From assembly GCA_904419495.1 (NCBI GenBank), contig CAJFRV010000001.1:1-32000 (forward strand): a stretch of 32,000 bases of DNA, in the 5' to 3' direction. Of this stretch, positions 4,171 to 30,442 are shown piece by piece. The notes under the pieces are model-generated. The model was not told the DNA's origin. It did not search any database and saw nothing but the letters and a program-made list of their open reading frames with translations. The position numbers and the translations under genes were made by a program. How positions within the stretch are numbered: the stretch's first letter is position 1; each line of letters opens with the position of its first letter. The DNA is from an uncultured Clostridia bacterium. GTDB taxonomy: Bacteria; Bacillota; Clostridia; TANB77; CAG-508.

Positions 4171-5703
4171 ATGATTTTTATACATTTTTTACTTTCCAAA
4201 CTATCAAAAATTATCCACCCATTTCCTAATAAAAAAACTTCTACTAAAAATTTAGAACATTTTACAAGTAATCAATTGCATTTAGAAATTGGATATGATC
4301 CCTCTTCAAAAATGATTGTTTCTATTCCAGAAAGTGGTTTATATCAAAATTTCTTGATTACAGGAACAATTGGATCTGGTAAAACTTCTTCTGCGATGTA
4401 CCCTTTTACTGAACAATTTATAAAATTCGGTTCTAATCCGCATCAAAAAATGGCAATGTTAATTTTGGATGTTAAAGGTAACTATTATAAACAAATTAAA
4501 GAGTTTTGTAAAACATTTAACCGATTATCAGATTTAATTGTTATAGAATTACATTCTCGTATTCATTATAATCCTCTACATAAACCAAAACTAAAACCTC
4601 AAGTGTTAGCCAATCGATTAAAAACCATTCTTTTACTATTTTCAGAAAATAATTCAGAATCTTACTGGCTAGATAAAGCAGAACAGGTCTTAACAGAATG
4701 TATTAAACTTTGCCGATTTTATAACAATGGATATGTTACTTTTACAGAAATCCATAAATTAATTACCATTCCAAATTACTATAAAGAAAAAATTCCTATA
4801 TTAAAAAATCTTTTTATCCACTCCAAATTTAAATCTGATGAAATTTATGAATTAAATTCTTGTTTAGATTTTTTTCAAAAAGAATTTGAGACTTTAGATC
4901 AGCGAACAAAAGCTATTTTGGTTTCTGAAATTACTAGAATTACCAATACGTTTGTATCAGATTATGATGTTATGTCTTGTTTTTGTTCTCCCAAAGAAAC
5001 TTTAACATTTACAAGTTTTGAAGAAGTTTTAAAAAATGGAAAAATTGTTGTTTTAAATATGAATATTTCTGAATATAGTATTCTTTCAAAAATAATTGCT
5101 ACTTACTTAAAGTTAGATTTTCAATCTGAAGTCTTATCTAATTTATCTAAAAATAAAATATATCCTTCTTGCTTTATATGTGATGAGTATGACAAATATG
5201 CTAGTAAAACAGATGCTGAATTTTTCTCTTTAAGTAGAGAAGCAAAATGTATTAATATTGTTAGTACCCAAAGTTATTCTTCGTTGAAAAACACATTAAA
5301 AGATGATTCTTTTGTAAAAGTCATTGTCCAAAATCTAATAAACAAGATTTGGTTTCGAACAGATGATATTTTTACAATTGAAGAAGCACAAAAACAACTG
5401 GGGAAAGAAGAAAAAGTAAGAACTTCAAAAAGTTTTTCTGAAAACGCGAAAGAAACCACTTTTAGTTATATCACAAATACATTAAATTCTGAAAATTCAA
5501 ACATTTCTGAATCTATTAGTACTTACGTACAAAATGATTATATCTATGAGTCTAATTATTTTACACAAAATCTTGAAACATTTTTTGCTTTATGTTTTTT
5601 ATCTGATGGTCATAAAATATATCCCCCTTGCAAATTGCAAATGTTTCCATATTTTAAAAATAGAAAGGAGTTTTTAAATGAAAAAAGAAAAAACAAATCT
5701 TAA
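4171..5703 (+). CDS. Type IV secretion coupling protein (VirD4/TraG-family ATPase); the true start is probably near 3976
   Basis: Walker A GTIGSGKTSS, ILDVKGNYY, and a Walker B-like FICDEYDKY followed by INIVSTQSYSSL (TraG-D_C-like). Sixty-six in-frame stop-free codons upstream encode two TM helices but hold no ATG/GTG/TTG. Confidence 0.7.
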   Translation: MIFIHFLLSKLSKIIHPFPNKKTSTKNLEHFTSNQLHLEIGYDPSSKMIVSIPESGLYQNFLITGTIGSGKTSSAMYPFTEQFIKFGSNPHQKMAMLILDVKGNYYKQIKEFCKTFNRLSDLIVIELHSRIHYNPLHKPKLKPQVLANRLKTILLLFSENNSESYWLDKAEQVLTECIKLCRFYNNGYVTFTEIHKLITIPNYYKEKIPILKNLFIHSKFKSDEIYELNSCLDFFQKEFETLDQRTKAILVSEITRITNTFVSDYDVMSCFCSPKETLTFTSFEEVLKNGKIVVLNMNISEYSILSKIIATYLKLDFQSEVLSNLSKNKIYPSCFICDEYDKYASKTDAEFFSLSREAKCINIVSTQSYSSLKNTLKDDSFVKVIVQNLINKIWFRTDDIFTIEEAQKQLGKEEKVRTSKSFSENAKETTFSYITNTLNSENSNISESISTYVQNDYIYESNYFTQNLETFFALCFLSDGHKIYPPCKLQMFPYFKNRKEFLNEKRKNKS

Positions 5704-7329: not shown

Positions 7330-8307
7330 ATGAAATTAGAACAAAATGATAAAACACTTTTATTTTCTGAAACAATGATACCTGATATCTTTTTTTCAGA
7401 CTATTTATCTCAAATACCGGGTGATTATTTAAAAATTTATTTATATATTATATTTCTTTCAAAGTATAATAAAGATATTAAATTAAATGATTTATCTAAA
7501 AAGTTAAATATACCTTTAAAATCTATTAGTGATGGTTTTAAATTTTTAGAAGAAAATAAATTAATAACAAAAAAATCTACTGGATATATAATAATAGATT
7601 TACAAGAAACGGCTCTTCATGAATTATATACGCCAAATTTAACTGTTTCTAAAGAAAAAGTTGCACAAACAGCTAAAAATCAGTCTAGAGCAAAAGCAAT
7701 TGAACATATTAATAATATGTATTTTCAAGGCATCATGAGTCCTTCTTGGTATAATGATATTGATATTTGGTTTAGAAAATATAATTTTGATGAACAAGTT
7801 ATGATTGCTCTTTTTGATTATTGTTATAATAGAAGTGCTATGCATAGAAATTATGTGCAAACAGTTGCAGAAGCTTGGGCTTCAAATAAAATTAAAACTT
7901 GGAATGATTTAGATAAATATTACGAAAAACAGGAAAAATTAAATTCTTTAAAGAAATCAATATCTAAAAAACTAGGAAAACATGGTAACTTAACACAATA
8001 TGAGGAAGCTTATATTGAAAACTGGGTATTAAATTTTGGTTATGATATGGATATTATTGAAATCGCTCTAAAACGTACAACCCTAAAGCAATCTCCTACT
8101 TTCGAATATATTAATACTATTATCACAGATTGGCATGATAGAAATTTGAAAACGCCTTCAGAAGTAAATGCATTTATTGAACAAAGGAAAAAATTAAATA
8201 AAGATACAAAAATATTGAAAAATCAAGTAGAAAAAGAAAATTACGAACAAAGAAAATATGAAAATCTAGACTTTTTATATGCAAATCAGATAAATAAGGA
8301 GGATTAA
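7330..8307 (+). CDS. DnaD-domain replication initiation/replisome organiser protein (DnaB/DnaD-like)
   Basis: 325 aa with an N-terminal winged-helix-like region and two DnaD/DnaB_2-like repeats (..WFRKYNFDEQVMIALFDYCYN..VAEAW.. and ..ENWVLNFGYDMDIIEIALKRT..INTIITDWH..). It is followed by a helicase-loader gene. Confidence 0.75.
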   Translation: MKLEQNDKTLLFSETMIPDIFFSDYLSQIPGDYLKIYLYIIFLSKYNKDIKLNDLSKKLNIPLKSISDGFKFLEENKLITKKSTGYIIIDLQETALHELYTPNLTVSKEKVAQTAKNQSRAKAIEHINNMYFQGIMSPSWYNDIDIWFRKYNFDEQVMIALFDYCYNRSAMHRNYVQTVAEAWASNKIKTWNDLDKYYEKQEKLNSLKKSISKKLGKHGNLTQYEEAYIENWVLNFGYDMDIIEIALKRTTLKQSPTFEYINTIITDWHDRNLKTPSEVNAFIEQRKKLNKDTKILKNQVEKENYEQRKYENLDFLYANQINKED

Positions 8308-8308
8308 A

Positions 8309-15167: not shown

Positions 15168-16547
15168 TTACAAATATAAAGTGAGGCGGAAGCCGATGTC
15201 ACCGTCGCTGTCAGCCGGACTGCAGTAGAAACGATAGGAAGCTGGATAGCCAGAACCTGTATAGCTGTAATTACCTCCTCGAAAAACACGAAAGTCAGTG
15301 TCGTAAGACTCCATTGTCCATTCATAAACATTTCCTGCTAAATCATAAATATTTTTCACATCATAATCATCACTTGCTCCGGTTGTTGTTACTTTTCCCT
15401 TCCAAGAGTTTGCATTTTCATCCTCGCTATAATTTCCTTTTCCTGTTGAATCTGCTACAAAATTCTTTTCTGCTACTAATTCTTCTGCTTTATTTTTATC
15501 TTTATATCTTGGCTCTATCCATGCCATAATAGCATCCCATTGCACTCCATAGATTAATGTACTTGTAACTGATGTATAACCTTTTTCATTTGCAAATTCT
15601 TTTGCCTTCTGCACTGCTCCTCCCGTTTCATTTGTCATATTATTACTATTTGACCAACCTATATAATTATATACATTTGCTCCTTGTTTAACTACTACAT
15701 CATCTGTAATTCCAGAACTACTTGTTCTTTCTTCTGTGCTTGCTGTTCCTGCTTCATATCTTCCTACATAAAATCCATTATGCTCTAATACACTTTCTTT
15801 CATTGCATTATATTCATCAACTTCATTTACATATCCATTCTCATATGGCTCTTTACAATCACTTAGTATTGAATCTATATCTCCATCAAAATATCCTTCA
15901 TAGGTTTTAAATGCACTATCATCTTCTACTGGCACCCATACAAATTGATTTCCTTTTAATGTTTTTGCCACTTCCCAACTTGTTCCTTTATTTTCATCAT
16001 TTGGATCATCTGATATAACTATTCCTTCTGCTTTACTTCCTCCTACATAATAAAATCCATCTGGGATTGTTACTCCTTCTACTATTGTTTCTGTATTATC
16101 ATTTCCACCATTATCTCCTACACTTGTACTTCCATTTCTATTTATCGTTACATCATATCCATCCACATTTACTGTATCTGGCAAACTCGTTATTTTATTA
16201 CTATCAGATATTGGACTTCCTTTATATGTTAAATTGTCTATCTTTTTTAGCTCATTATTTAAAGTATCCATATTAATTTTTCCATCTGTTCCTATACTTG
16301 CTGCTACTGCTAATTTTACTTGTTCTTCTGCATTTGCCCTTTTCGTATCTTCACTTGCTTCCTGTGCCTTTGTTAATATTCCATTATCTCCTGTTAGTGT
16401 TGCAATTGTTACTCCTGCTAGGATTAATAAGACAATGATTGTTATGACTAATGCTATTAATGTGATTCCTCGTTTTTCTTCTAATTTTTTTATTCTGTTT
16501 ACTTTCATCTTCATATCTTTGCTTTTTTCCTTTCTGACTCTTTCCAT
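15168..16547 (-). CDS. DGR target protein: N-terminal pilin-like signal anchor, central domain, C-terminal FGE-sulfatase/C-type-lectin-fold domain carrying the VR
   Basis: 459 aa. The N-terminus is KRGITLIALVITIIVLLILAGVTIATL. The C-terminal half carries FVWVPV, GFYVGRYE, GVQWDAIMAWI and YDLAGNVYEWT...FRVFRGGNYSYTGSGYPASYRFYCSPADSDGDIGFRLTLYL. A GGAGG RBS lies upstream. Confidence 0.9.
   Translation of the reverse strand: MERVRKEKSKDMKMKVNRIKKLEEKRGITLIALVITIIVLLILAGVTIATLTGDNGILTKAQEASEDTKRANAEEQVKLAVAASIGTDGKINMDTLNNELKKIDNLTYKGSPISDSNKITSLPDTVNVDGYDVTINRNGSTSVGDNGGNDNTETIVEGVTIPDGFYYVGGSKAEGIVISDDPNDENKGTSWEVAKTLKGNQFVWVPVEDDSAFKTYEGYFDGDIDSILSDCKEPYENGYVNEVDEYNAMKESVLEHNGFYVGRYEAGTASTEERTSSSGITDDVVVKQGANVYNYIGWSNSNNMTNETGGAVQKAKEFANEKGYTSVTSTLIYGVQWDAIMAWIEPRYKDKNKAEELVAEKNFVADSTGKGNYSEDENANSWKGKVTTTGASDDYDVKNIYDLAGNVYEWTMESYDTDFRVFRGGNYSYTGSGYPASYRFYCSPADSDGDIGFRLTLYL
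15181..15310 (-). repeat. DGR variable repeat (VR), last ~43 codons of the target gene
   Basis: 130 bp aligned to the TR without gaps. There are 22 mismatches, all where the TR has T on the + strand (A on the coding strand). The shared GC-rich 3' end ACATCGGCTTCCGCCTCAC is IMH-like. Confidence 0.92.
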
Positions 16548-17470: not shown

Positions 17471-18190
17471 CTAAATTAATTTTTCAGCCAATGCTAATTG
17501 TTCTTGATTCAAATTAAAATTTTGTCCATTATTTTTTATTAAATTATGTATATTTCCTATTATTCTTGCTTGATTAATAATTTCTTCTAATGGAGCAAGT
17601 GTTTCTAATATTTTTTCTATTTTATTATATTCTTTTTCCATCTTTCCAAAATTTTTATCTTTGAAATTTTCCTTCCAATTATTCATGTATTTTTCAATAT
17701 TTTCTACTTCTATATTTTGTTCTTTAAATTTTTCTTCTATATTGTGTTCCACACTATTTAATATAATATCTTTTCCTTGTTTTATAGTATTAGCAATATT
17801 ATAATTTATAATTCCTTTTTTATTTACTTTGTCAACTACTGTATCCAACAAAGAAGAAATACCATCAATTAAACCTCCTGTTTCAATAGCATTTTGCATT
17901 TGTGAAATAGATTCAAAATTTCCTGTAAATATCCCTATAGCACTTTTACCAATATCTATTGCATCCTCTATTGTTTTTGTTATTCCATCTTTCAGTCCGT
18001 AATTTAATAAATTATCTTTTATATTAATAATTTGTTCATCAATAAAGTCTGGTAATAATGCTCTTATTCCTATATCAATTGCTGTATTTATTGTTTTTCC
18101 TAATGTTGTTTCTAAAAAATTTGTCTGTTCTTCTCTAATTTGTATTTCATTATTTAAATTTATTCCATTGTCTATTTTATTTATTTCCAT
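17471..18190 (-). CDS. Hypothetical protein (239 aa from the Met preceded by AAGGAG)
   Basis: The ORF track gives 17471-18217. I prefer the ATG at 18190 (MEINKIDNG...) because AAAAGGAG lies 8 nt upstream. It is helical (..TNFLETTLGKTINTAIDIGIRALLPDFIDEQI..) and I recognise no family with a known function. Confidence 0.6.
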   Translation of the reverse strand: MEINKIDNGINLNNEIQIREEQTNFLETTLGKTINTAIDIGIRALLPDFIDEQIINIKDNLLNYGLKDGITKTIEDAIDIGKSAIGIFTGNFESISQMQNAIETGGLIDGISSLLDTVVDKVNKKGIINYNIANTIKQGKDIILNSVEHNIEEKFKEQNIEVENIEKYMNNWKENFKDKNFGKMEKEYNKIEKILETLAPLEEIINQARIIGNIHNLIKNNGQNFNLNQEQLALAEKLI

Positions 18191-18224
18191 ATAAATTACT
18201 CCTTTTTTACTTTTCAATTTTTTA

Positions 18225-18440
18225 TATTTTTTTAATTAATAATTATTAACATTTTTATGTTTTTTATTTTTAATTATTATTTTATTATTGTTAATATTTT
18301 TTATGTTTTTTATTTTTTAATTATTATTTTATTATTATTAATATTTTTATGTTTTTTATTTTTTAATTATTATTTTATTATTATTAATATTTTTATGTTT
18401 TTTATTTTTTAATTATTAATTATTAATTATTTTATTATTG
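18225..18440. repeat. Tandem repeat, 46-bp unit, about 4.5 copies
   Basis: The landmark ATG within ...ATTTTTATGTTTTTTATT... recurs at 18257, 18303, 18349 and 18395 (period exactly 46). The units are nearly identical. Confidence 0.75.
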
Positions 18441-18649
18441 TTAATAATTTATAATTTTTTTAAATTTTAATTATTAAATATTTCTTTCTTTTTTAATTTA
18501 TTATAATATTAATTATTTCTTATATAATTATTTAAAATAATATCTATCATATAATTTTTTTATGATGTATTTTTTGATATTATTTACTCTTCAAGATAGT
18601 TTTTATTTTTATTTATTCATTATCATTGTTAAAATCATTCAATATTATT

Positions 18650-21600
18650 TCTAGATTATGTATACTAGGATTTTTAATTTTTTTATATTCTTTTATTTTT
18701 ATAAAATCCAGCTTTTCTTTTATTACGTAGGACTTTCTATCATTATTATTTATACTAATTCTATATATTTTTTTGTTTGATTCTGTATGTTTTTATTTTT
18801 CATGTAAACTTTTATATTAAAATGTTTTTAATAAAGTTCCTTTTTATATTTGTATTTTTTACTAAAAAATTTTGTTCATCTTTCATAGATTTTTAACTCT
18901 CTTATATTTATAATTTATATATATTTTTTTTAGTTAAACTTATATATTTTATAATTATTATTAATAAATTTATTTTTGGGATAAATAATAATTATTTAAA
19001 ATTATTTTTTATTCTTTTTATTATTATTTTATTTTTAAAATTTTTAAATATTTTAAATTCATTTTTTATTCAAATATTTTTATTTTTTTGTAGTAAATTT
19101 TATTTTAAAAAAATAAAGTTTGTTATATTCATTTTTTATTTTTATTATTAATATTTTATATTTAATTTTTAATTATTTTTTCTATTATTTTTTATTTATT
19201 TTATAACTCTTCATTTTATATTTTTATTAGCTTTCTGTTTTATATTATTCTCAAGATCCAATGTTATAAATTTATTTGTAAGTTTCTTAATAACTTTCTT
19301 TTTCTATATATATTTTTTTATAAATAAAAAATTTTATTTGTACATTATGTATACATAAATATTTTATCAAACTTCTATCTTTTATTTTTAATATATATCC
19401 GCAATCTCTCTTTTACGTAGCTTTTCATTTTTTTATATTTTTATTTATCTTTTAATTCTTATTTAGTTTTTCTATATTAGAAATTCTTATCGGTAAACTT
19501 CTATATTTCTTTTTATTAAAATTATTTTTTGAAACTTCTTTTTGTTTTTTCTCCTTGTTTGTTCTTTAATTTCTTATTTAATTTTTTTTATTTATTTTCT
19601 TTTCTAATTTTTTTAATTTTATTTTATTCGTTAAAAAATATTATTTTATTAATATTTTTATATTTTATTTATTTAACTGTTTTATTTAATTTTTTATTTT
19701 TTAATTTCTTTCCTATTTTATATTTTAATCTTTTTTATAAAAATTTTTATTTTCTAAAAATAAAATTATTTATATTTAGTTTTTTTATTTTTTATTTCTT
19801 GTATTTATTTTTTTATAATTAATTTTAATCATTTATTTTTTTTATTACTTTTTATATTATCTCTAATTTTATTTCTTTAATCTTTCCTTTTATATTTTTA
19901 TTAAATTTTTCATTTTTATATTATTTTTTATGTCTAATCCTATAAATTTATTTACTTATAACTTCACTAATAACTTCCTTGGTTTTCTCAAATAAACTTA
20001 TTCAAATATTTTATTTCTATATTATGTATATATAAATATTTTATAAAGCTCCTATCTTTTATTTTTAATACATATTCCTAATCTCTCTTTTACGTAGGCT
20101 TTTCATTCTTTAATATTTTTATTTATCTTTTAATTTCTATTTAATTTTTCTATATTAGTAATTTTTATCGGTAAACTTCTAAATTACTTTTTTTCAAAAT
20201 TCATTTTGTCTTTTCTTCTCGTTTGTTGTTTAATTTCCTATCCAATTTTTTTAATTTTATTTTATTTATGAAAAACATTTTTTTATTAATATTTTTTATA
20301 ATTTATTTATTTAATTTGTTATTTTTCTAACTTTTTATGTTTGAATATTTTTTTATTTAAACATTTTACTTTTTAATAATAAATTTCATTTTGCAAAAAT
20401 AGAATTATTAATTTTTAAATTCTTATTATTTACATTTATTTTTTTATAATTATTTTTTATTTTTTTAACAATAACTTTTATTTTTTTTAATTAAAATTAT
20501 TTATATTCAATTTTTGAATTTTTATTATTTATATTTATTTTTAATAATTAATTTTATTTTTTTATTATTATTTTGTAATTTATTTTGTAATTTTTCACTT
20601 TATATTTTCTAATTTCTTTTTTTTATATAATTTTTTTATAACTAATGCCATAAATTTATCTATTTAAAAATTTGCTATTAGCTTTTTCTTTCATTTAGAT
20701 ATACTTATATAGATATTTTATTTAGACATTATGTATACATATTTTTTTATCAAACTTCCATCTTTAATTTTTAATACATATCTCTATTCATTTATTTACG
20801 TAGTTTCTTCGTCTCTAATTTTTTTATTCGTTTCTTGTTCTTTATTTCATTTTTTCCATATTAGTATGCTTTATTGGTAAACTTCTAATTTTCTTTTTGT
20901 AAAAAGTAAAATTGCTTTTCCCATAGTTCATTTTGTCTTTCTTTTTTTTCTGTTTTCTAATTCCAAATGTATCTTTTAATCTTTTTCTTAATTTTATTTC
21001 TATTAATTATTTTATTTATTTAATTATTTTTTATTTTCTTTTTATTAATTTACTTATTAATTTATAAAATATTTTAATATATAATTTTTTTCTTTTTATA
21101 AATTTCTTCTTATTTAATAATTATTTTTTATTATATATTTATATTAATTAAAAATAAAATTGCTTTATTTTTGATTTTCATGCCTTACTTTTTAATTTTT
21201 ATTTTTACAAATTTTAAATAATTTTATTTATTAATTTTTATTATTTATTTTTATTGTTTATTTTTGTATATCTATTTATAATTAATTATTTTATTATTTT
21301 TTAATATTTTTATTAGCTTTATTTTTTATAAAATTAATAAAAAACTTTTTATAGATTTTTTTCATATATTTATAGACTCTTAATTTTTATTTTTGATTAT
21401 GTATACATTCTTCTGTTGTTGCTTACTTTATTTTTTCTTTCCTTATCTTTTATTTTTCCATTTCTATATAGTATTTTAGATTTTACTATTATAATTATTT
21501 TTTTACTTTTAAATTATTATTTAATTTTTTTATTTTAACGTAAACTTTTATTAATATATATTTTCTTGATTTTTTGTTATTATTTATATTATTTTATTTT

Positions 21601-22140
21601 TATCAATATTTAATATAATTAATTATTTATTTTATTTTTATTAATTTATAATTTTTAATAATTAAATATTTATTTTTTTATTACTTTTTTATTTTAAATC
21701 TTTAAATCTATTTTTTATTAAATTTTTCTGATCAAATAATTATCACTACTTTTTTTCTTTTATTATATATTTTTTTTAATAAATTATTTTTTATTTAATA
21801 ATTTATTTTATTATTATATTTATTGATTTTTTGTAAAATTCCATTTTAATTTTTTTACTAATTATTTCTTACAATTATTTTTTGAGTTTTTATTTTTGCA
21901 TACATATTTTACTCTGGTTTAAATTGTTTCTTTTTTCTTATTTATAATCTTCTCTTTTTTAACTTTATTTCTGTTTTATGTTTACTCTTTCTTTTTCATT
22001 TTATAATTTAACTTTCTTTTCTCATTTTCTGCTTCATCCTTTTTTACGTAGTTATTTACATATTTATCTTTTTACTTTTTTGCTAAAATTTTTTCTTTCT
22101 CTAATGTTTTCTTTTCTATTATTGGTAAACTTTTATTTAA
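18650..22140. repeat. Degenerate higher-order tandem array, about 6 units of roughly 590-710 bp, in an ORF-free ultra-AT-rich tract
   Basis: Co-linear landmarks recur in the same order. ATTATGTATACAT-like sites sit at 18655, 19344, 20021, 20728 and 21397 (degenerate at 21897). TACGTAG sits at 18724, 19414, 20091, 20797 and 22045. GTAAACTT sits at 18804, 19493, 20171, 20877, 21540 and 22125. Units 1-3 align by eye over more than 400 bp. Confidence 0.7.
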
Positions 22141-22362
22141 GTATCATATTGTATATATTTTTTCTCTTTAATACTAAAAACTTTTTCTTTCTTTTATCTT
22201 TTTCTACTTTTATTTTTTTAATAATTAATTTTTATGATTATTTTACTTAATCATATTTTTATTTATTATTATTAATTTTTTTATTATTTACTTTCTATTA
22301 AATAAATTATAAAAATTTTTTTAATTTTATTTTTGTATTTTTTAATATATATTTTTATTTTA

Positions 22363-23439
22363 TTAATTTATTAAATTAATTATTTTTATTTTATTAAATT
22401 TATTTTTTAATATTATTTTATAAAAATACTTTGATATATTATTTTTTTGATAATTTAAAATAATAAAATTTATTTTTTTATCTTTATTTAAATTCTTATT
22501 TAATTTTAATAAATTTTCTTTATTATTTTCCAATACTATTATGTTATTATTTTTATTTTTTATATAATTTTTATTTATATTCATATTTTTATATTCTATA
22601 TTAAATATTATATAATTATTATTTCTATTATATTTTTTTATTATTTTTTTTAATATTGCTATTTTTATTAAATTATTTCTATTTTCTAATATTTTATTTA
22701 TATTTATAATTTTTTTAAAATTTTTATTTATTATTTTTTCTTTTAATAAAAATTTTAATTTTGTTTTTAAATAATATTTATTTTTTATTTTATTTAATTT
22801 TATTGTTTTTTTATTATTTATATTATTTTTAAATTTTTTATTTCTTTTTTTATTATTTATTTTCAAATTTATTGTTATTACTTTTTTATTTTCAATAATT
22901 AAATTTTTTATAATTATTAATTCTATTATTTTTTTGTCTATTTTACTTTCTCCAAAAATACATATATTTTTATTGGTCGATATTTCTTCTTTTTTATTAT
23001 ATATTATTCTATTTTTTATTTTATTTATTATTATATTTAATTTATTATTTTTTATTTTATTTTTTAATTTACTATTTTTTTTATTTTTAATATTATTATT
23101 TTCTTTTAATTTTTTTATTAATTTATAAATACTAAAAATATTATTGTAATAAATATTTTTTATATTATTTTTAATTAATTCTGATTTTATTTTTTTATTA
23201 TTTAATATAATAATTATTTTTATTTTTTTGTTATTTTTTTTTATTTGTTTTATTAATTTTATAAAATTTATTTCCCCGGGAATTTTTTCACTAATAATTA
23301 TACTCTCTATTTTTTTATTATTTTTTATTGTATCTAAAATTGCTTCTCTATATAAAATATTTTTATTTTTTATTATTTTATTTTTTATCATTTTTCTTAA
23401 TATATTTTCTTCATATATGGCTGTCACAATTTTAGTCAT
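22363..23439 (-). CDS. Lys/Asn/Ile-dominated hypothetical protein, translationally coupled to the VirB4-like gene
   Basis: A 358-aa uninterrupted ORF in sequence where stop codons should be frequent. Its ATG overlaps the VirB4 stop (ATGACTAA) and AAAGGAG lies upstream. The N-terminal ~60 aa have more normal composition (MTKIVTAIYEENILRKM...ILYREAILDTI). Confidence 0.5.
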   Translation of the reverse strand: MTKIVTAIYEENILRKMIKNKIIKNKNILYREAILDTIKNNKKIESIIISEKIPGEINFIKLIKQIKKNNKKIKIIIILNNKKIKSELIKNNIKNIYYNNIFSIYKLIKKLKENNNIKNKKNSKLKNKIKNNKLNIIINKIKNRIIYNKKEEISTNKNICIFGESKIDKKIIELIIIKNLIIENKKVITINLKINNKKRNKKFKNNINNKKTIKLNKIKNKYYLKTKLKFLLKEKIINKNFKKIININKILENRNNLIKIAILKKIIKKYNRNNNYIIFNIEYKNMNINKNYIKNKNNNIIVLENNKENLLKLNKNLNKDKKINFIILNYQKNNISKYFYKIILKNKFNKIKIINLIN

Positions 23440-25839
23440 TTATTTTTTCTCCTTTTATAATTTCATATTCATCATTTGAACATTCTATTTTTGTTAGTAT
23501 GTGATCTTCTCCAACAAACATTAAACATTCTCCTCTTTTTAAAGATTTTATTTCTATTTTTTCTTTTTCTGATAAATTAGCATATTCTGATAATACTTTT
23601 ATATTTTCTTCTTCTAATGCAAAAAATGTTTTTATACTAGAATTATTTAATATACTTTTTCCATAAATTCCTTCTTCTAAACTAAATAAATCTGAAATGT
23701 CTTGTGTGATCGCAACACTACTTCCACCATATTTTCTAATTGTTTTAAATATTTTATATATAAAACTTGCTACATTTTTATTTGAAGTGACCCCTATTAG
23801 TCTCCATATTTCGTCTAAATAAATTGCTTTTTTTTCTTTTCTATTTTCTTTGATTTTATCCCAAAAAATATCGGTAAATAAATACATACCATATTTTAAA
23901 TTTTCTTCTCCTAATTCATATATATCTGCAATAATTAATTCATTTTTTAATTCTATATTTGTATAATGATTAAAAAATTTCATAGATCCCTTCACAAATG
24001 GTATTAACTTTATGGCAAATTTTTCTGTTTTTTTATCTTTTTTTAAATTATTGTATAAATCTTCTAATATAGGCATATCTTTTTTATTTTTAAAAATTAT
24101 TTTTTTATTTTCTTTTTTATATAAAGATTTATCATCAAAATTAATATTTTTATTTTTATAAGTTTCAATTAATTTTTCTTCTATTAATGCTTTTTCTTCT
24201 TCATTTAATTCTCCAAAAATTAAATTAAAAAATCCAATTAATTTTCCTATCTTAGTTGCTAAATATCCATTTTCTCCATCTTCTATACTTTCTTTTCTGA
24301 TTTCTAAGATATTAATATACGTATTAGAATTGGGTCCAATAATAATTCTAGTTCCTTTTAACTTTTCATTTACACTTACATACTCTCTTTCTGGATCAAT
24401 AATATATTGTTTTATACCCATTAATCTATATCGTAAAATTAATAATTTTGTATAAAAAGATTTTCCTGCACCACTTGTCCCAAAAATACATATATTAGCA
24501 TTTTTATATTTTTGTGTATCATATCTATCTATAAATACTAGGGAATTATTATATATATTTGTTCCAATAAAAATGCCTTCTTGATCGAAAATAGTTGAAG
24601 AAATAAATGGGTATGTTGCCACCAAACTAGAAGTCAATATATTTCTTTTTGCTACATTTTTTATAATTTTATGATTTTTCATAATTGGCAAACAACTTTC
24701 AAATATTTCTTCTTGTCTAAAATTTGCTCTTCTTGTTTGCAAACCTTTACTTTGTGAAATGCCTTCTATTTTACTTAATACATATTCTAGTTCCTTAATG
24801 TCCTGTGCATATACTAATAAATAGATATACAAATAATAGATTTCTTCATTGTTGACTTGGATCTCTTTTCTTATATACTTTGCATCTCCATAAATAGAAG
24901 TAGCAATATCAATATCTTGTCTATTTTCATGATTATTTTTTACTTCTACTCCTACATTTCCAATATGATATGTTAATTCTTTTATAACTCTGTAAGAATC
25001 TTGTTTTTCATAAAAAATCGATATGTTTACATTAATGTTACTTTCTATAATACTTTTTAATATAATATCTGTTTGTTCTCTATAATAATCTACAATTATA
25101 ATTCCTGAATAATACATATTATCAATTTCTATATATTGAGGATTTTGAAAATTAATATACGCAGGAGAAATTTTATCTTTTTCAAATATTGTTCCTTCTA
25201 AAATTTTTAATTTTTTTTCGTTATTTTTTTTATTCCAAATTTTTTTTAATTCTATTTTTATTCCTCCTTATAACTATAATTTTTATTAAAATGTTTTTTT
25301 GTATTTAAGAATGAAAAAAATATTTTTAATATTTCTTGTTTTTCATCAATTACATTTACTTTATTTCCACAACGTGATAAACATTCTTTTATTTTTAAAT
25401 ATTTTTCATTTAATTCTTGAATAATGATTTCTATATTTTTTTCTTTTTTATTTATTGGATAATTTTTTATTATGATATAAAATTTTTTTGAAGATGATTT
25501 TTTATTATTATTTAAATTTGAAATATATTGAATATAATTTTCAGATAATTCTTTTAAGAATTTATTTTCTTTTTTTAAAATATTTTTTTTTATTTTTGAA
25601 ATATGATGACTTAAATCTTCTTTATTACTTTGAATTAAAATTTGCATATCAAATTGACATGTTTTAAAAAAAATCTTATATGAATTTAAAATGGATTCTT
25701 TTTCTAACTCAGATTTTAAATTATAATTTATTGGAGTAACTTCCAATATTTTTATATATGTATTTTCTTTTGTTTCAATAATACCATCTTGATAGATATG
25801 ATTAACGGGTATCCATTCTTGGACAGTCTGATTATTAAT
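23432..25839 (-). pseudogene. VirB4-family T4SS ATPase, interrupted (two reading frames; no canonical start)
   Basis: The N-terminal frame reads ..INNQTVQEWIPVNHIYQDGIIETKENTYIKILEVTPINYNLKSELEKESIL.. (to the stop at 25258). The C-terminal frame is open from 25267 and reads ..ISPAYINFQNPQYIEIDNMYYSGIIIVDYY.., Walker A GTSGAGKSFY, and Walker B-like AIYLDEIWRL. The two frames overlap by only 10 nt. The combined length of about 800 aa matches VirB4. Confidence 0.8.
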
Positions 25840-28604: not shown

Positions 28605-29699
28605 CTAAAACTCTTGATTTTCTTTTATCACTTTTCCGTCCCTAACATTATATATTAAAATATTTTTATTTTCAAGTTCTATTTTATCAGTACAAGTGAT
28701 AATTACTTGGATATTCTCAATTTTTTCTAATAGATGTTTTCTTCTTTTTTCATCTAATTCTGACATAAAATCATCTAATAATAATATAGGATATTCTCCA
28801 ATTTCATCATATATAATTTCTAATTCAGCCATCTTTAAAGATAGAATTGCTGTTCTATGTTGACCTTGAGAGCCATATATCCCTAGTTCTTTATCATTTA
28901 TATAAATAGTAAAATCATCTCTGTGAATTCCTTTTGTTGTATATCCTTTTATAATATCAAGTTTTCTTCTTTCTTTTAAAATTCTCTTGTACTTTTCTTT
29001 ATTTTCACAATCAGTTTGATATACAATTTTAATTTCTTCTTTATTATCTGTTACTTGATTATGTATTTTTATAATTTTTTCTTGTATTTTTTCTATAAAT
29101 TCTTTTCTATAACTATATATCTTCTCAGCATATTCTATTAATTTTTCATCCCATATTTCTAGTAATTCTTCACTTTTATTTTCTTCTCGAATTTGTCTTA
29201 AATAATGATTTCTTTCTTCTATGGTTTTTAAATATAAATTTAAATTGTACATATAATTTGGTTTTAACTGACTTATCATAATATCTAAAAAGCGTCTTCT
29301 ATTTTGTGGACCACCTTTCAAAATATGAATATCATCTGGTGTAAAAATAACAACATTTATACTTCCCAATAATTCACTTAATTTTTTTAATTTAATTCCA
29401 TTAAAATAAATATTCTTCTTATTACCTATATCTATTTTTATTTTTCCACATCGATCAGATTTTTCATAAAAAACTTCAATAGTAGCACTTTCTTTTTCTA
29501 GCTGAATCATCTCCGTATCTTTTTTGGCTCGGAAAGATTTTCCCATACTACATAAAAAAATTGCTTCTATAATATTAGTTTTTCCTTGTGCATTTTCACC
29601 ATAAAATATATTTAAATTTTTATCTAATTCTATTATTTCTTTTTGATAATTCCTGAAATTATTTAAAATTATTTTATTTATCCACATATTTTTCTCCAT
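28605..29699 (-). CDS. recF: DNA replication and repair protein RecF (start more likely the Met at 29687)
   Basis: NFRNY...FYGENAQGKTNIIEAI (Walker A) and ILLLDDFMSELD (Walker B). GGAGAAAAAT precedes the second ATG (MWINKI...). The stop lies 12 nt before the gyrB start. Confidence 0.93.
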   Translation of the reverse strand: MEKNMWINKIILNNFRNYQKEIIELDKNLNIFYGENAQGKTNIIEAIFLCSMGKSFRAKKDTEMIQLEKESATIEVFYEKSDRCGKIKIDIGNKKNIYFNGIKLKKLSELLGSINVVIFTPDDIHILKGGPQNRRRFLDIMISQLKPNYMYNLNLYLKTIEERNHYLRQIREENKSEELLEIWDEKLIEYAEKIYSYRKEFIEKIQEKIIKIHNQVTDNKEEIKIVYQTDCENKEKYKRILKERRKLDIIKGYTTKGIHRDDFTIYINDKELGIYGSQGQHRTAILSLKMAELEIIYDEIGEYPILLLDDFMSELDEKRRKHLLEKIENIQVIITCTDKIELENKNILIYNVRDGKVIKENQEF

Positions 29700-29780
29700 T
29701 TGTGTATAACTTATTTTTTATTTTTATTATTTTTTTTACTATTTTTTTATTTATTTTTTAATGACAAATTATATGAATCA

Positions 29781-29900
29781 AAAATAAAATTGGCTTATTT
29801 TTGATTTTCAAGCTTCATTTTTTTTATTTTATTTTTTTTATTAATCGATAAATTACATTACTAAAAAATTAAATCGGCTTATTTTTGATTTTCAAGCTTT
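29781..29900. repeat. Two copies of a ~35-bp dispersed repeat (third copy at 21151-21185)
   Basis: AAAATAAAATTGGCTTATTTTTGATTTTCAAGCTT at 29781-29815. The core GGCTTATTTTTGATTTTCAAGCTT recurs at 29876-29899. A near-identical AAAATAAAATTGCTTTATTTTTGATTTTCATGCC sits at 21151-21185. Confidence 0.7.
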
Positions 29901-30374
29901 GTTTTTTTTTATTAATTTATAAAAATTGATTTTTTTATATTTATAAATTAAATTTTTTTATTATTTTATTTTTTATTTTATAAAAATTTTGTATTTTTTT
30001 ATATTATTTTTTATTATTTATATTTATAAATATTTTTATTTTTTTCTTTTTTAATATTCTATTATTTATTATAAAATATTATTTTTATCTTTTTTTATTT
30101 TTTTTATAAAATTTTTTATTTTAATATTTTTTTATTTTTTCTTTTTTTAAAATTTTGTTTTTCTCTTTTTTTCTAATTTATTCTAATTTTTACTAATTTA
30201 TTCTATTTTTTTCATTTAATTTATTTTTCTTATTTTGTGTTTTTTTCATTTTTTTTCATTTTCTATTTTTATCTTTTTTTATCTTTTTTTTTCTAATTTA
30301 TTCTAATTTATATAAATTTGATTTTTTTGTATTCTTTTTTTATATTTAAAGTTTATATGTTTATTTTTTAAACT

Positions 30375-30406
30375 TTATCCACAATCTTTTCATAAAAAGT
30401 GGATAA
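30375..30406. promoter_or_regulatory. Inverted pair of DnaA boxes just downstream of dnaN
   Basis: TTATCCACA (30375-30383) is a perfect consensus. AGTGGATAA (30398-30406) is an 8/9 match in the opposite orientation. Confidence 0.6.
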
Positions 30407-30442
30407 CTATATAAAAGATTAAAGGTAGAAATACTTCCACCT

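Follow-up and report, generated by a model that had tools for sequence, protein, structure and literature searches.

What is a 4.1-kb tract free of open reading frames (ORFs) doing between two genes near the replication origin of an uncultured Clostridia bacterium? The tract occupies positions 18218 to 22362 of the 32,000-nucleotide stretch of contig CAJFRV010000001.1 that was analysed here (the window). It is ultra-AT-rich, with about 11% G+C, and on the minus strand it holds a six-unit tandem array together with a block of short-period repeats. Upstream of it lies KN, encoding a 358-aa protein with receiver-like and ParA/MinD-like character (22363-23439, minus strand); downstream lies p239, encoding a conserved 239-aa protein (17471-18190, minus strand). 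We read the tract as a non-coding, lineage-specific tandem array whose motifs are putative recognition sites, accommodated in a hyper-variable KN-p239 spacer, and we place the probability of this reading at roughly 55%. Nothing in the tract calls for a new kind of system.

The units are non-coding at present. G+C content runs at 0.08-0.14 along the tract compared with about 0.22-0.33 in the flanking genes. An original prediction, made from the nucleotide letters of the window, held that the minus strand contains no ORF of at least 60 aa. Indeed, the longest ORFs there measure 25-29 aa, and all three frames are interrupted by 160-181 stops in 1381 codons (12% of codons). The same prediction dismissed the plus-strand ORFs as phenylalanine/leucine/isoleucine artefacts, and rightly so: those of 97 and 90 aa are rich in F, L and I and are by-products of a strand that is 61% T. 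What did not survive was its suggestion of synonymous and conservative changes in a recurrent RSLPI peptide. Among units 2-4 the three codon positions are substituted equally often (p = 0.08-0.79) and indels do not come in multiples of three, so that neither codon periodicity nor any other coding constraint was found. Directly upstream of the p239 start, a 46-bp repeat is present in 4.1 tandem copies with 93% matches (18242-18431, no strand assigned), and its copy number varies among strains of one species. Single-nucleotide polymorphisms (SNPs) among strains changed G/C to A/T in 48 cases and A/T to G/C in 46 cases within the tract. This balance indicates that the tract is at compositional equilibrium, and the tract suggests a neutral G+C content of about 10% for these genomes.

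The repeat array is real, as landmarks, self-alignment and shuffled controls all confirmed. Six units follow one another head to tail, in one orientation and at spacings of 585-706 bp. Each is built around a minus-strand module of three islands, AAGTTTAC (I1), followed after 72-73 nt by CTACGTAA (I2) and after another 57-58 nt by GTA(A/T)ACATAA (I3). Five units fit this pattern with at most one mismatch, unit 5 having no intact I2; shuffled tracts gave no three-part module at all. Along the minus strand, the module of unit 1 occupies 18656-18811 (I3 GTATACATAA at 18656-18665, I2 CTACGTAA at 18723-18730, I1 AAGTTTAC at 18804-18811) and that of unit 2 occupies 19345-19500 (I3 19345-19354, I2 19413-19420, I1 19493-19500). 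In unit 3, at 20022-20178 (I3 20022-20031, I2 20090-20097, I1 20171-20178), I3 reads ATATACATAA with one mismatch, and strain L003 has the G restored. Unit 4 spans 20729-20884 (I3 20729-20738, I2 20796-20803, I1 20877-20884). In unit 5, at 21397-21547 (I3 21397-21406, I1 21540-21547), the TACGTA motif of I2 has decayed to CTATATAG (21464-21471). Unit 6 spans 21976-22132 (I3 21976-21985, I2 22044-22051, I1 22125-22132), and its I3, GTAAACATAA, is the form seen in sister genomes.

The same picture emerged when the motifs were counted singly. All same-orientation copies of GTAAACTT in the window lie in the tract, at 18804, 19493, 20171, 20877, 21540 and 22125; the other match, at 10036 within gyrA, is on the opposite strand, the number expected over both strands being about 1.9. 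TACGTA is found at 18724, 19414, 20091, 20797 and 22045, CTACGYAA has five matches where 0.25 are expected, and ATGTATACAT lies at 19347, 20731 and 21399. Apart from the single gyrA match, the window has none of the three motifs outside the tract. The earlier claim of about six co-linear units every 585-706 bp was therefore upheld, with landmarks broadly where it had placed them and small corrections in units 1, 5 and 6. A palindrome variant assigned to 18658 in unit 1 is there, but as an exact GTATACATAA at 18656, whereas the variant proposed at 21897 for unit 6, the unit nearest the upstream gene, is replaced by GTAAACATAA as the third landmark.

When the tract was aligned with itself, the top off-diagonal matches lay at offsets 695 and 1364. 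Standard blastn statistics carry no meaning at a composition where any pair of AT-rich stretches will align at about 65%, and we relied on composition-aware local alignment. This gave z = 129 for the unit at 19347 against that at 20024, z = 75 for the 20024 and 20731 units, and z = 51 for the 19347 and 20731 units. Units 2 and 3 are 82% identical over 545 nt, and the remaining two pairs among units 2-4 are 73% identical (about 530-550 nt). Units 1, 5 and 6 scored only z = 1-8; they have essentially the landmarks alone in common, with the spacing kept to within 1 nt. Single-offset autocorrelation of G/C along the tract showed no peak, because unit lengths differ, and an nhmmer search seeded with units 2-4 matched nothing but itself.

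Are the islands merely what the eye picks out, or are they constrained? Relatives were fetched with the VirB4-family ATPase encoded next to KN (561 aa; 23432-25117, minus strand) as a handle, which yielded about 100 loci, and 15 units from five genomes (the window, L016, L019, L021 and L071) were aligned. The columns with a G/C consensus of at least 70% were solely the seven G/C positions of I1-I3. Pairwise identity between genomes was 0.87 in I2 plus I3 and 0.50 between the islands, the random expectation being 0.46; I2 and I3 had played no part in the picking of units. Likewise, units picked through I3 alone also possessed I1 and I2 at the exact spacing. Across seven strains of the window species, 0 of 38 island G/C sites were polymorphic against 53 of 418 other G/C sites in the tract (12.7%; Fisher p = 0.007). 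Of the A/T sites, 72 of 3393 were polymorphic, a rate about six times lower than that of G/C sites. L021 and L071 share about 70% identity in the tract and 91% in the ATPase gene; neutral decay is thus fast, and against it the intact islands stand out. Both of these genomes carry an additional GTAAACATAA 81 nt upstream of I1. The full module is found in the window species and in L016, L021, L071, L096, L097, L102 and L103 (ATPase identity 93-94%).

The three motifs of each unit thus look constrained in the window's species group, and we infer that they are putative recognition sites in double-stranded DNA, with an accessory function and under purifying selection. They would not be operators of the palindromic kind that had been proposed: TACGTA reads TACGCA in L021 and L071, GTATAC reads GTAAAC outside the window species, and the palindromes are therefore not kept as palindromes. 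The wider proposal of a binding-site array gains some support from the three constrained islands, but none from the palindromes, and the array is absent from relatives whose ATPase is 92% identical to that of the window. The module pattern had no match in viral contigs and just two in metagenomes, both at the same type of locus, which gives no sign of a mobile element family.

From where did such units arise? In some relatives the answer is plain. The tract of L066 contains four copies of KN residues ~219-359 together with spacer, at 76-83% amino-acid identity (E values from 1e-32 to 1e-57); L089 has four copies that are more decayed, and L043 has one or two. In DNA comparisons, the 3'-terminal 400 nt of KN matched the genome's own tract with z = 88 in L066, 158 in L043, 47 in L089 and 14.7 in L054, and with z = 9.1 in L072, 5.1 in L047, 4.5 in L029 and 3.5 in L038. 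The repeats of these eight species are demonstrably tandem copies of the KN 3' part plus spacer, at various stages of decay. Anchored comparisons and register tests with a position-specific scoring matrix (PSSM) were positive in L089 (z about 4 in the PSSM tests) and L054. Moreover, AAGTTTAC corresponds to the codons for (K/R)-S-L-H in the best conserved C-terminal motif of KN, KSLHII.NKYYFNS, and it occurs in KN genes that are intact as well as in the decayed copies downstream of them. Among its 120 anagrams, GTTTAC is the most frequent by a wide margin: the tracts of the two clades contain it 30 and 45 times, the median being 1. For the window units, the shared AAGTTTAC (Ser-Leu-His/Pro codons) is the sole link to KN.

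Several results weigh against our reading. A tblastn search of all KN proteins against the tract did no better than a reversed-sequence control (67 against 63 bits), and anchored DNA comparison of KN with the window-clade tract gave nothing. In the window clade, PSSM register tests against the two KN segments bearing AAGTTTAC, one C-terminal (SLH) and one N-terminal (ESLPG), reached z <= 0.4, and the KN 3' end against its own tract gave z <= 1.5 in all eight window-clade genomes. The arrays of relatives L028, L055 and L082 are likewise without similarity to KN, so that duplication of spacer alone is possible. As to the motifs, the module is missing from the long-tract sister species L014, L023 and L024 and from tract-less relatives, the motifs have no conserved dyad symmetry, and the tract is dispensable in L100 and L101. 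No DNA-binding protein was identified for them; p239 has no Pfam domain, and its AlphaFold2 model is all-helical with a confidence too low (pLDDT 46) to be usable. Finally, the polymorphism test spans 38 sites in seven closely related strains.

A profile hidden Markov model of the KN C-terminus also failed to match the translated tract, but it missed the window's own KN as well and is therefore uninformative. In-register matches seen by eye (KNI, Tyr28 and SK) were dropped, being unsupported by the anchored and PSSM tests. Descent of the window units from the KN 3' end is accordingly a tentative proposal, with a little less than an even chance of being right, and a decay series leading from fresh KN copies to the state of the window is plausible. 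Among the three explanations offered originally, that of tandemly duplicated genes in dissolution under AT pressure has the strongest support, through the KN-derived arrays of eight relatives, although the tests of such an origin within the window clade were negative.

The spacer itself varies extremely among relatives. The distance from the ATPase gene to p239 ranges from 857 to 5909 bp, the interval has 8-22% G+C in all loci, and besides KN it contains essentially no ORFs. Several species have only 54-100 bp between KN and p239. In L100 (a long-read contig) and L101 the spacer comprises 246-334 bp of pure A-rich micro-repeats, with an ATPase 92% identical to that of the window. It measures 2.0 kb in L098 (ATPase 91%), 2.8 kb in L014 (92%), 3.9 kb in L102 and L103 (93% for L102), 4.1 kb in the window and 4.8 kb in L023 (90%). 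Most long spacers are tandemly periodic, with a species-specific period of about 500-1300 bp; such differences among species indicate recurrent and independent amplification at one site. Many contigs of metagenome-assembled genomes (MAGs) stop 1-3.5 kb past the ATPase gene, within the tract, making it the break point of many MAG contigs.

Relative L082 carries a family of ~600-bp units, 85-90% identical to one another, in three arrays (1997-2558, 7457-9154 and 12914-14177). Two of these stand behind duplicated 182-aa ORFs and one behind KN, so that units can spread within the origin-proximal region. In L064, a gene for a PD-(D/E)XK family transposase is inserted into the KN-p239 spacer (4591-5484). 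We also considered whether the islands might originally have been the p239 promoter or the end of KN in single-copy loci, a master copy as it were; minimal loci lack islands 2 and 3, and the idea was rejected.

We propose the following course of events, which is documented for the locus in relatives and which we infer for the window's own array. A minimal spacer of ~50-330 bp of A-rich short repeats is tandem-duplicated again and again, and the mechanism is presumably either unequal recombination or slippage during replication. The duplicated segment often has its left boundary within the KN 3' end, so that units of ~500-1300 bp accumulate head to tail. The copies are untranslated; they drift to a mutational equilibrium near 10% G+C and are unrecognisable by the time the neighbouring ATPase has changed by a few percent. 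In the window's group each unit nevertheless keeps AAGTTTAC, CTACGYAA and GTAWACATAA at fixed spacing while the intervening sequence is saturated. A protein, possibly one encoded in the locus, would bind these motifs, and the array would thereby be more than junk, namely an accessory cis element with multiple sites.

That it is nothing but junk is the serious rival to this proposal, if a less likely one. The tract would then be genomic debris, a neutral by-product of a duplication-prone AT-rich spacer, and the islands its slowest-decaying leftovers. Such an explanation accommodates the minimal spacers of 0.25-0.33 kb in L100 and L101 beside so similar an ATPase, the sister species without modules, the compositional equilibrium of the tract and its near-neutral divergence between L021 and L071, the degenerate and in some strains split KN, and the decay series seen at the same site in many MAG genomes. 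Yet AT-biased mutation should remove G/C first, and the G/C of the islands makes up the only conserved G/C columns in 15 units from five genomes. These same positions escaped the polymorphism that affects G/C elsewhere in the tract, and the distances between islands are kept to within 1 nt amid saturated sequence. Bacterial genomes are, besides, biased toward deletion, and long-term retention of 4 kb of junk is not expected in them.

Copies of an adjacent gene's 3' part that are partial, lack a promoter and keep the orientation of that gene, as found in L066, L089 and L043, bring to mind another explanation, that of a silent-cassette archive in which truncated KN copies donate by gene conversion to the expressed C-terminus, as in pilS and vls. 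When the close relatives L023 and L024 are compared, moreover, variation is highest in the 3' half of KN and in the proximal tract. We nonetheless regard such an archive as very improbable. The window units are saturated with stops and show no detectable similarity to the resident KN, so that they cannot donate usable sequence. In L066 some copies contain in-frame stops, and their pN/pS of 0.37-0.58 relative to the gene fits divergence between gene and pseudogene. KN is a ParA-like protein of cytoplasmic type and no surface antigen, and its 15 SNP columns, in just 7-10 near-identical strains, form no obvious mosaic.

KN itself is peculiar. Its G+C content of 7.2% is below that of the adjoining non-coding tract, making it a protein gene that survives under the suggested neutral value of ~10%. 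In relatives, the protein gives weak Response_reg and CbiA matches below the Pfam cut-offs and has an intact GxxxxGK(T/S) motif, whereas the KN of the window has a degenerate Walker A, GESKIDKK, and no Pfam match. The gene is called as two pieces in strains L001 and L004 and is apparently truncated in L008. KN is thus either decaying or an instance of extreme AT-driven protein evolution; in our proposal it is the candidate parent of the units.

Could the array instead consist of small RNA or micro-peptide genes, one in each unit, as one of the original explanations had it? Unit 4 does hold a 29-aa ORF, MNYGKSNFTFYKKKIRSLPIKHTNMEKMK, the conserved islands could represent promoter or processing elements, and in units 2 and 4 island 3 coincides in part with a promoter-like TTGATA-N15-CATAAT. 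The 29-aa ORF is, however, broken in units 2 and 3, leaving no conserved micro-ORF, and sister genomes read CATAAA, without the final T of the putative -10 element. No Rfam family was found in the tract, the modules folded no better than shuffles (z = -1.1 as RNA, about 0 as DNA), no terminator-like sites were detected in the tract, and its promoter-like matches numbered 67 compared with 82 in shuffles. We therefore hold RNA or peptide genes to be quite unlikely.

An integron-like cassette array is barely conceivable. It would take the GTTTAC of island 1 as the inverse core and the GTAAAC of island 3 as the core of an attC-like site; the two are reverse complements about 146 nt apart, and the units are of cassette size. 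When folded as single-stranded DNA, the A-rich strand gave minimum free energies of -5.4 and -5.7 kcal/mol (z = -0.16 and +0.17) with the islands unpaired, and this folding at the level of shuffles rules out an attC-like hairpin. GTAAAC has changed to GTATAC in the window species without a compensating change in island 1, no integrase was present among the neighbouring genes scanned, and the supposed cassettes contain no ORFs.

The location of the locus, three to four genes away from dnaA-dnaN, and the extreme AT content of the tract also invite an explanation as a replication-origin element near oriC, either a cluster of DnaA boxes or a DNA-unwinding region. A separate AT-rich stretch between recF and dnaN is bordered by DnaA boxes, which lends some colour to it. 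In contrast, no DnaA box with at most one mismatch occurs in 18218-22362, and the tract is absent or tiny in close relatives that share the same origin region; the explanation is highly improbable and effectively refuted. The recF-dnaN spacer (29700-30442) is a second ORF-free, ultra-AT-rich stretch, 743 bp long with 10.4% G+C and full of TTAGAATAAATTAG-type repeats; its bordering DnaA boxes lie at 29678 and 29701 on one end and at 30375 and 30398 on the other, and the spacer possibly belongs to the origin region. L082, one of the relatives, has a copy of the repeat-unit array at this recF-dnaN position.

The genes around the tract are strikingly stable. On the minus strand the order is dnaN, recF, gyrB, a gene for a 162-aa TraC/TrsD-like protein (25258-25746), that for the 561-aa VirB4-family ATPase, KN, the tract and p239; past p239 toward gyrA come a convergent XRE gene and a diversity-generating retroelement. 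At least 95 loci share the order ATPase, KN, spacer, p239 within the gyrB-gyrA interval, p239 being the next gene after the spacer in every case. Locus L002 is an ENA metagenome scaffold identical to the window, whose sequence was found again at ~98% identity in many human-gut assemblies. The TraC/TrsD-like protein and the ATPase are the N-terminal and C-terminal parts, respectively, of a split VirB4 (together 23432-25746), which occurs without other type IV secretion genes and has a fixed place between gyrB and gyrA in over 80 MAG species (L011-L103). Identity of the ATPase across these species is 74-100%, suggesting a domesticated function of the split VirB4. The type IV pilus cluster of a published study on TANB77 proved unrelated to this locus. 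The p239 protein has over 4000 homologues in the protein collection, and none of the 120 best matches listed carries a source-given name.

The retroelement is complete and lies on the minus strand at 12690-16547. It comprises genes for a reverse transcriptase (13042-14067) and bAvd (14051-14437), a 141-aa ORF and a 459-aa target gene (15168-16547) with an FGE-sulfatase/CLec C-terminus. Its template and variable repeats (TR/VR) lie at 12836-12969 and 15177-15310 (134 nt, 83%), and an Rfam RT-14 RNA lies at 12690-12840. The element is missing from strain L003 and stands on the gyrB side of the locus in L011 and L012.

At this one fixed position on the chromosome, tandem duplication recurs and its products decay rapidly across a large clade of uncultured gut Clostridia; the hotspot offers a natural series from fresh gene-fragment copies to sequence at mutational equilibrium. 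If the motifs are true binding sites, ex-coding sequence would have been recycled as a cis-regulatory or structural array, and the locus would provide a first handle on the function of the conserved split-VirB4/ParA-like/p239 module. One could go further and suppose a fast-evolving cis element in which amplified ParA-like 3' coding sequence was exapted with three recognition motifs per unit, to serve as a centromere-like or nucleoid-anchoring platform near oriC. This platform for loading or organising, multi-site and of kilobase scale, would stand beside the ParA-like ATPase and the domesticated VirB4 module, with oriC a few genes away; we consider it improbable.

Among known systems, the partition centromeres sopC of F, parS of P1 and parC of pB171 consist of iterated sites beside a parA-family gene. 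The tract resembles them in its several copies of a short conserved motif set, three motifs per unit at fixed spacing in at least 15 units and five genomes, adjoining a ParA/MinD-like gene. It differs in that its sites are separated by 600-700 bp, not by tens of bp, and are without conserved dyads or close repeats. No recognisable ParB-like gene is present, the Walker A motif of the ParA-like protein is degenerate in the window, and close relatives retain the genes, KN and p239 included, without the array. Neisseria pilS, Borrelia vls and MgPar of Mycoplasma genitalium are partial silent copies beside an expressed gene. Truncated, promoterless, same-orientation tandem copies downstream of a parent gene are common to these systems and to our locus, most clearly in L066 and L089. 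The copies described here are, however, filled with stops, those of the window no longer resemble the resident KN, the parent gene encodes a ParA-like cytoplasmic protein, and there is no sign of gene conversion.

The third comparison is with the intergenic spacers of Buchnera, an example of decaying pseudogenes and gene remnants in AT-rich, reduced genomes (PMC3164680). Both cases present non-coding, AT-driven, ex-coding sequence at varied stages of decay, with short conserved elements inside otherwise unconstrained spacer. The host here, however, belongs to a free-living gut Clostridia lineage and is no obligate symbiont; the remnants form kilobase arrays whose length differs between sister species, and they are regenerated each time a single gene's 3' end or the spacer is locally duplicated in tandem.

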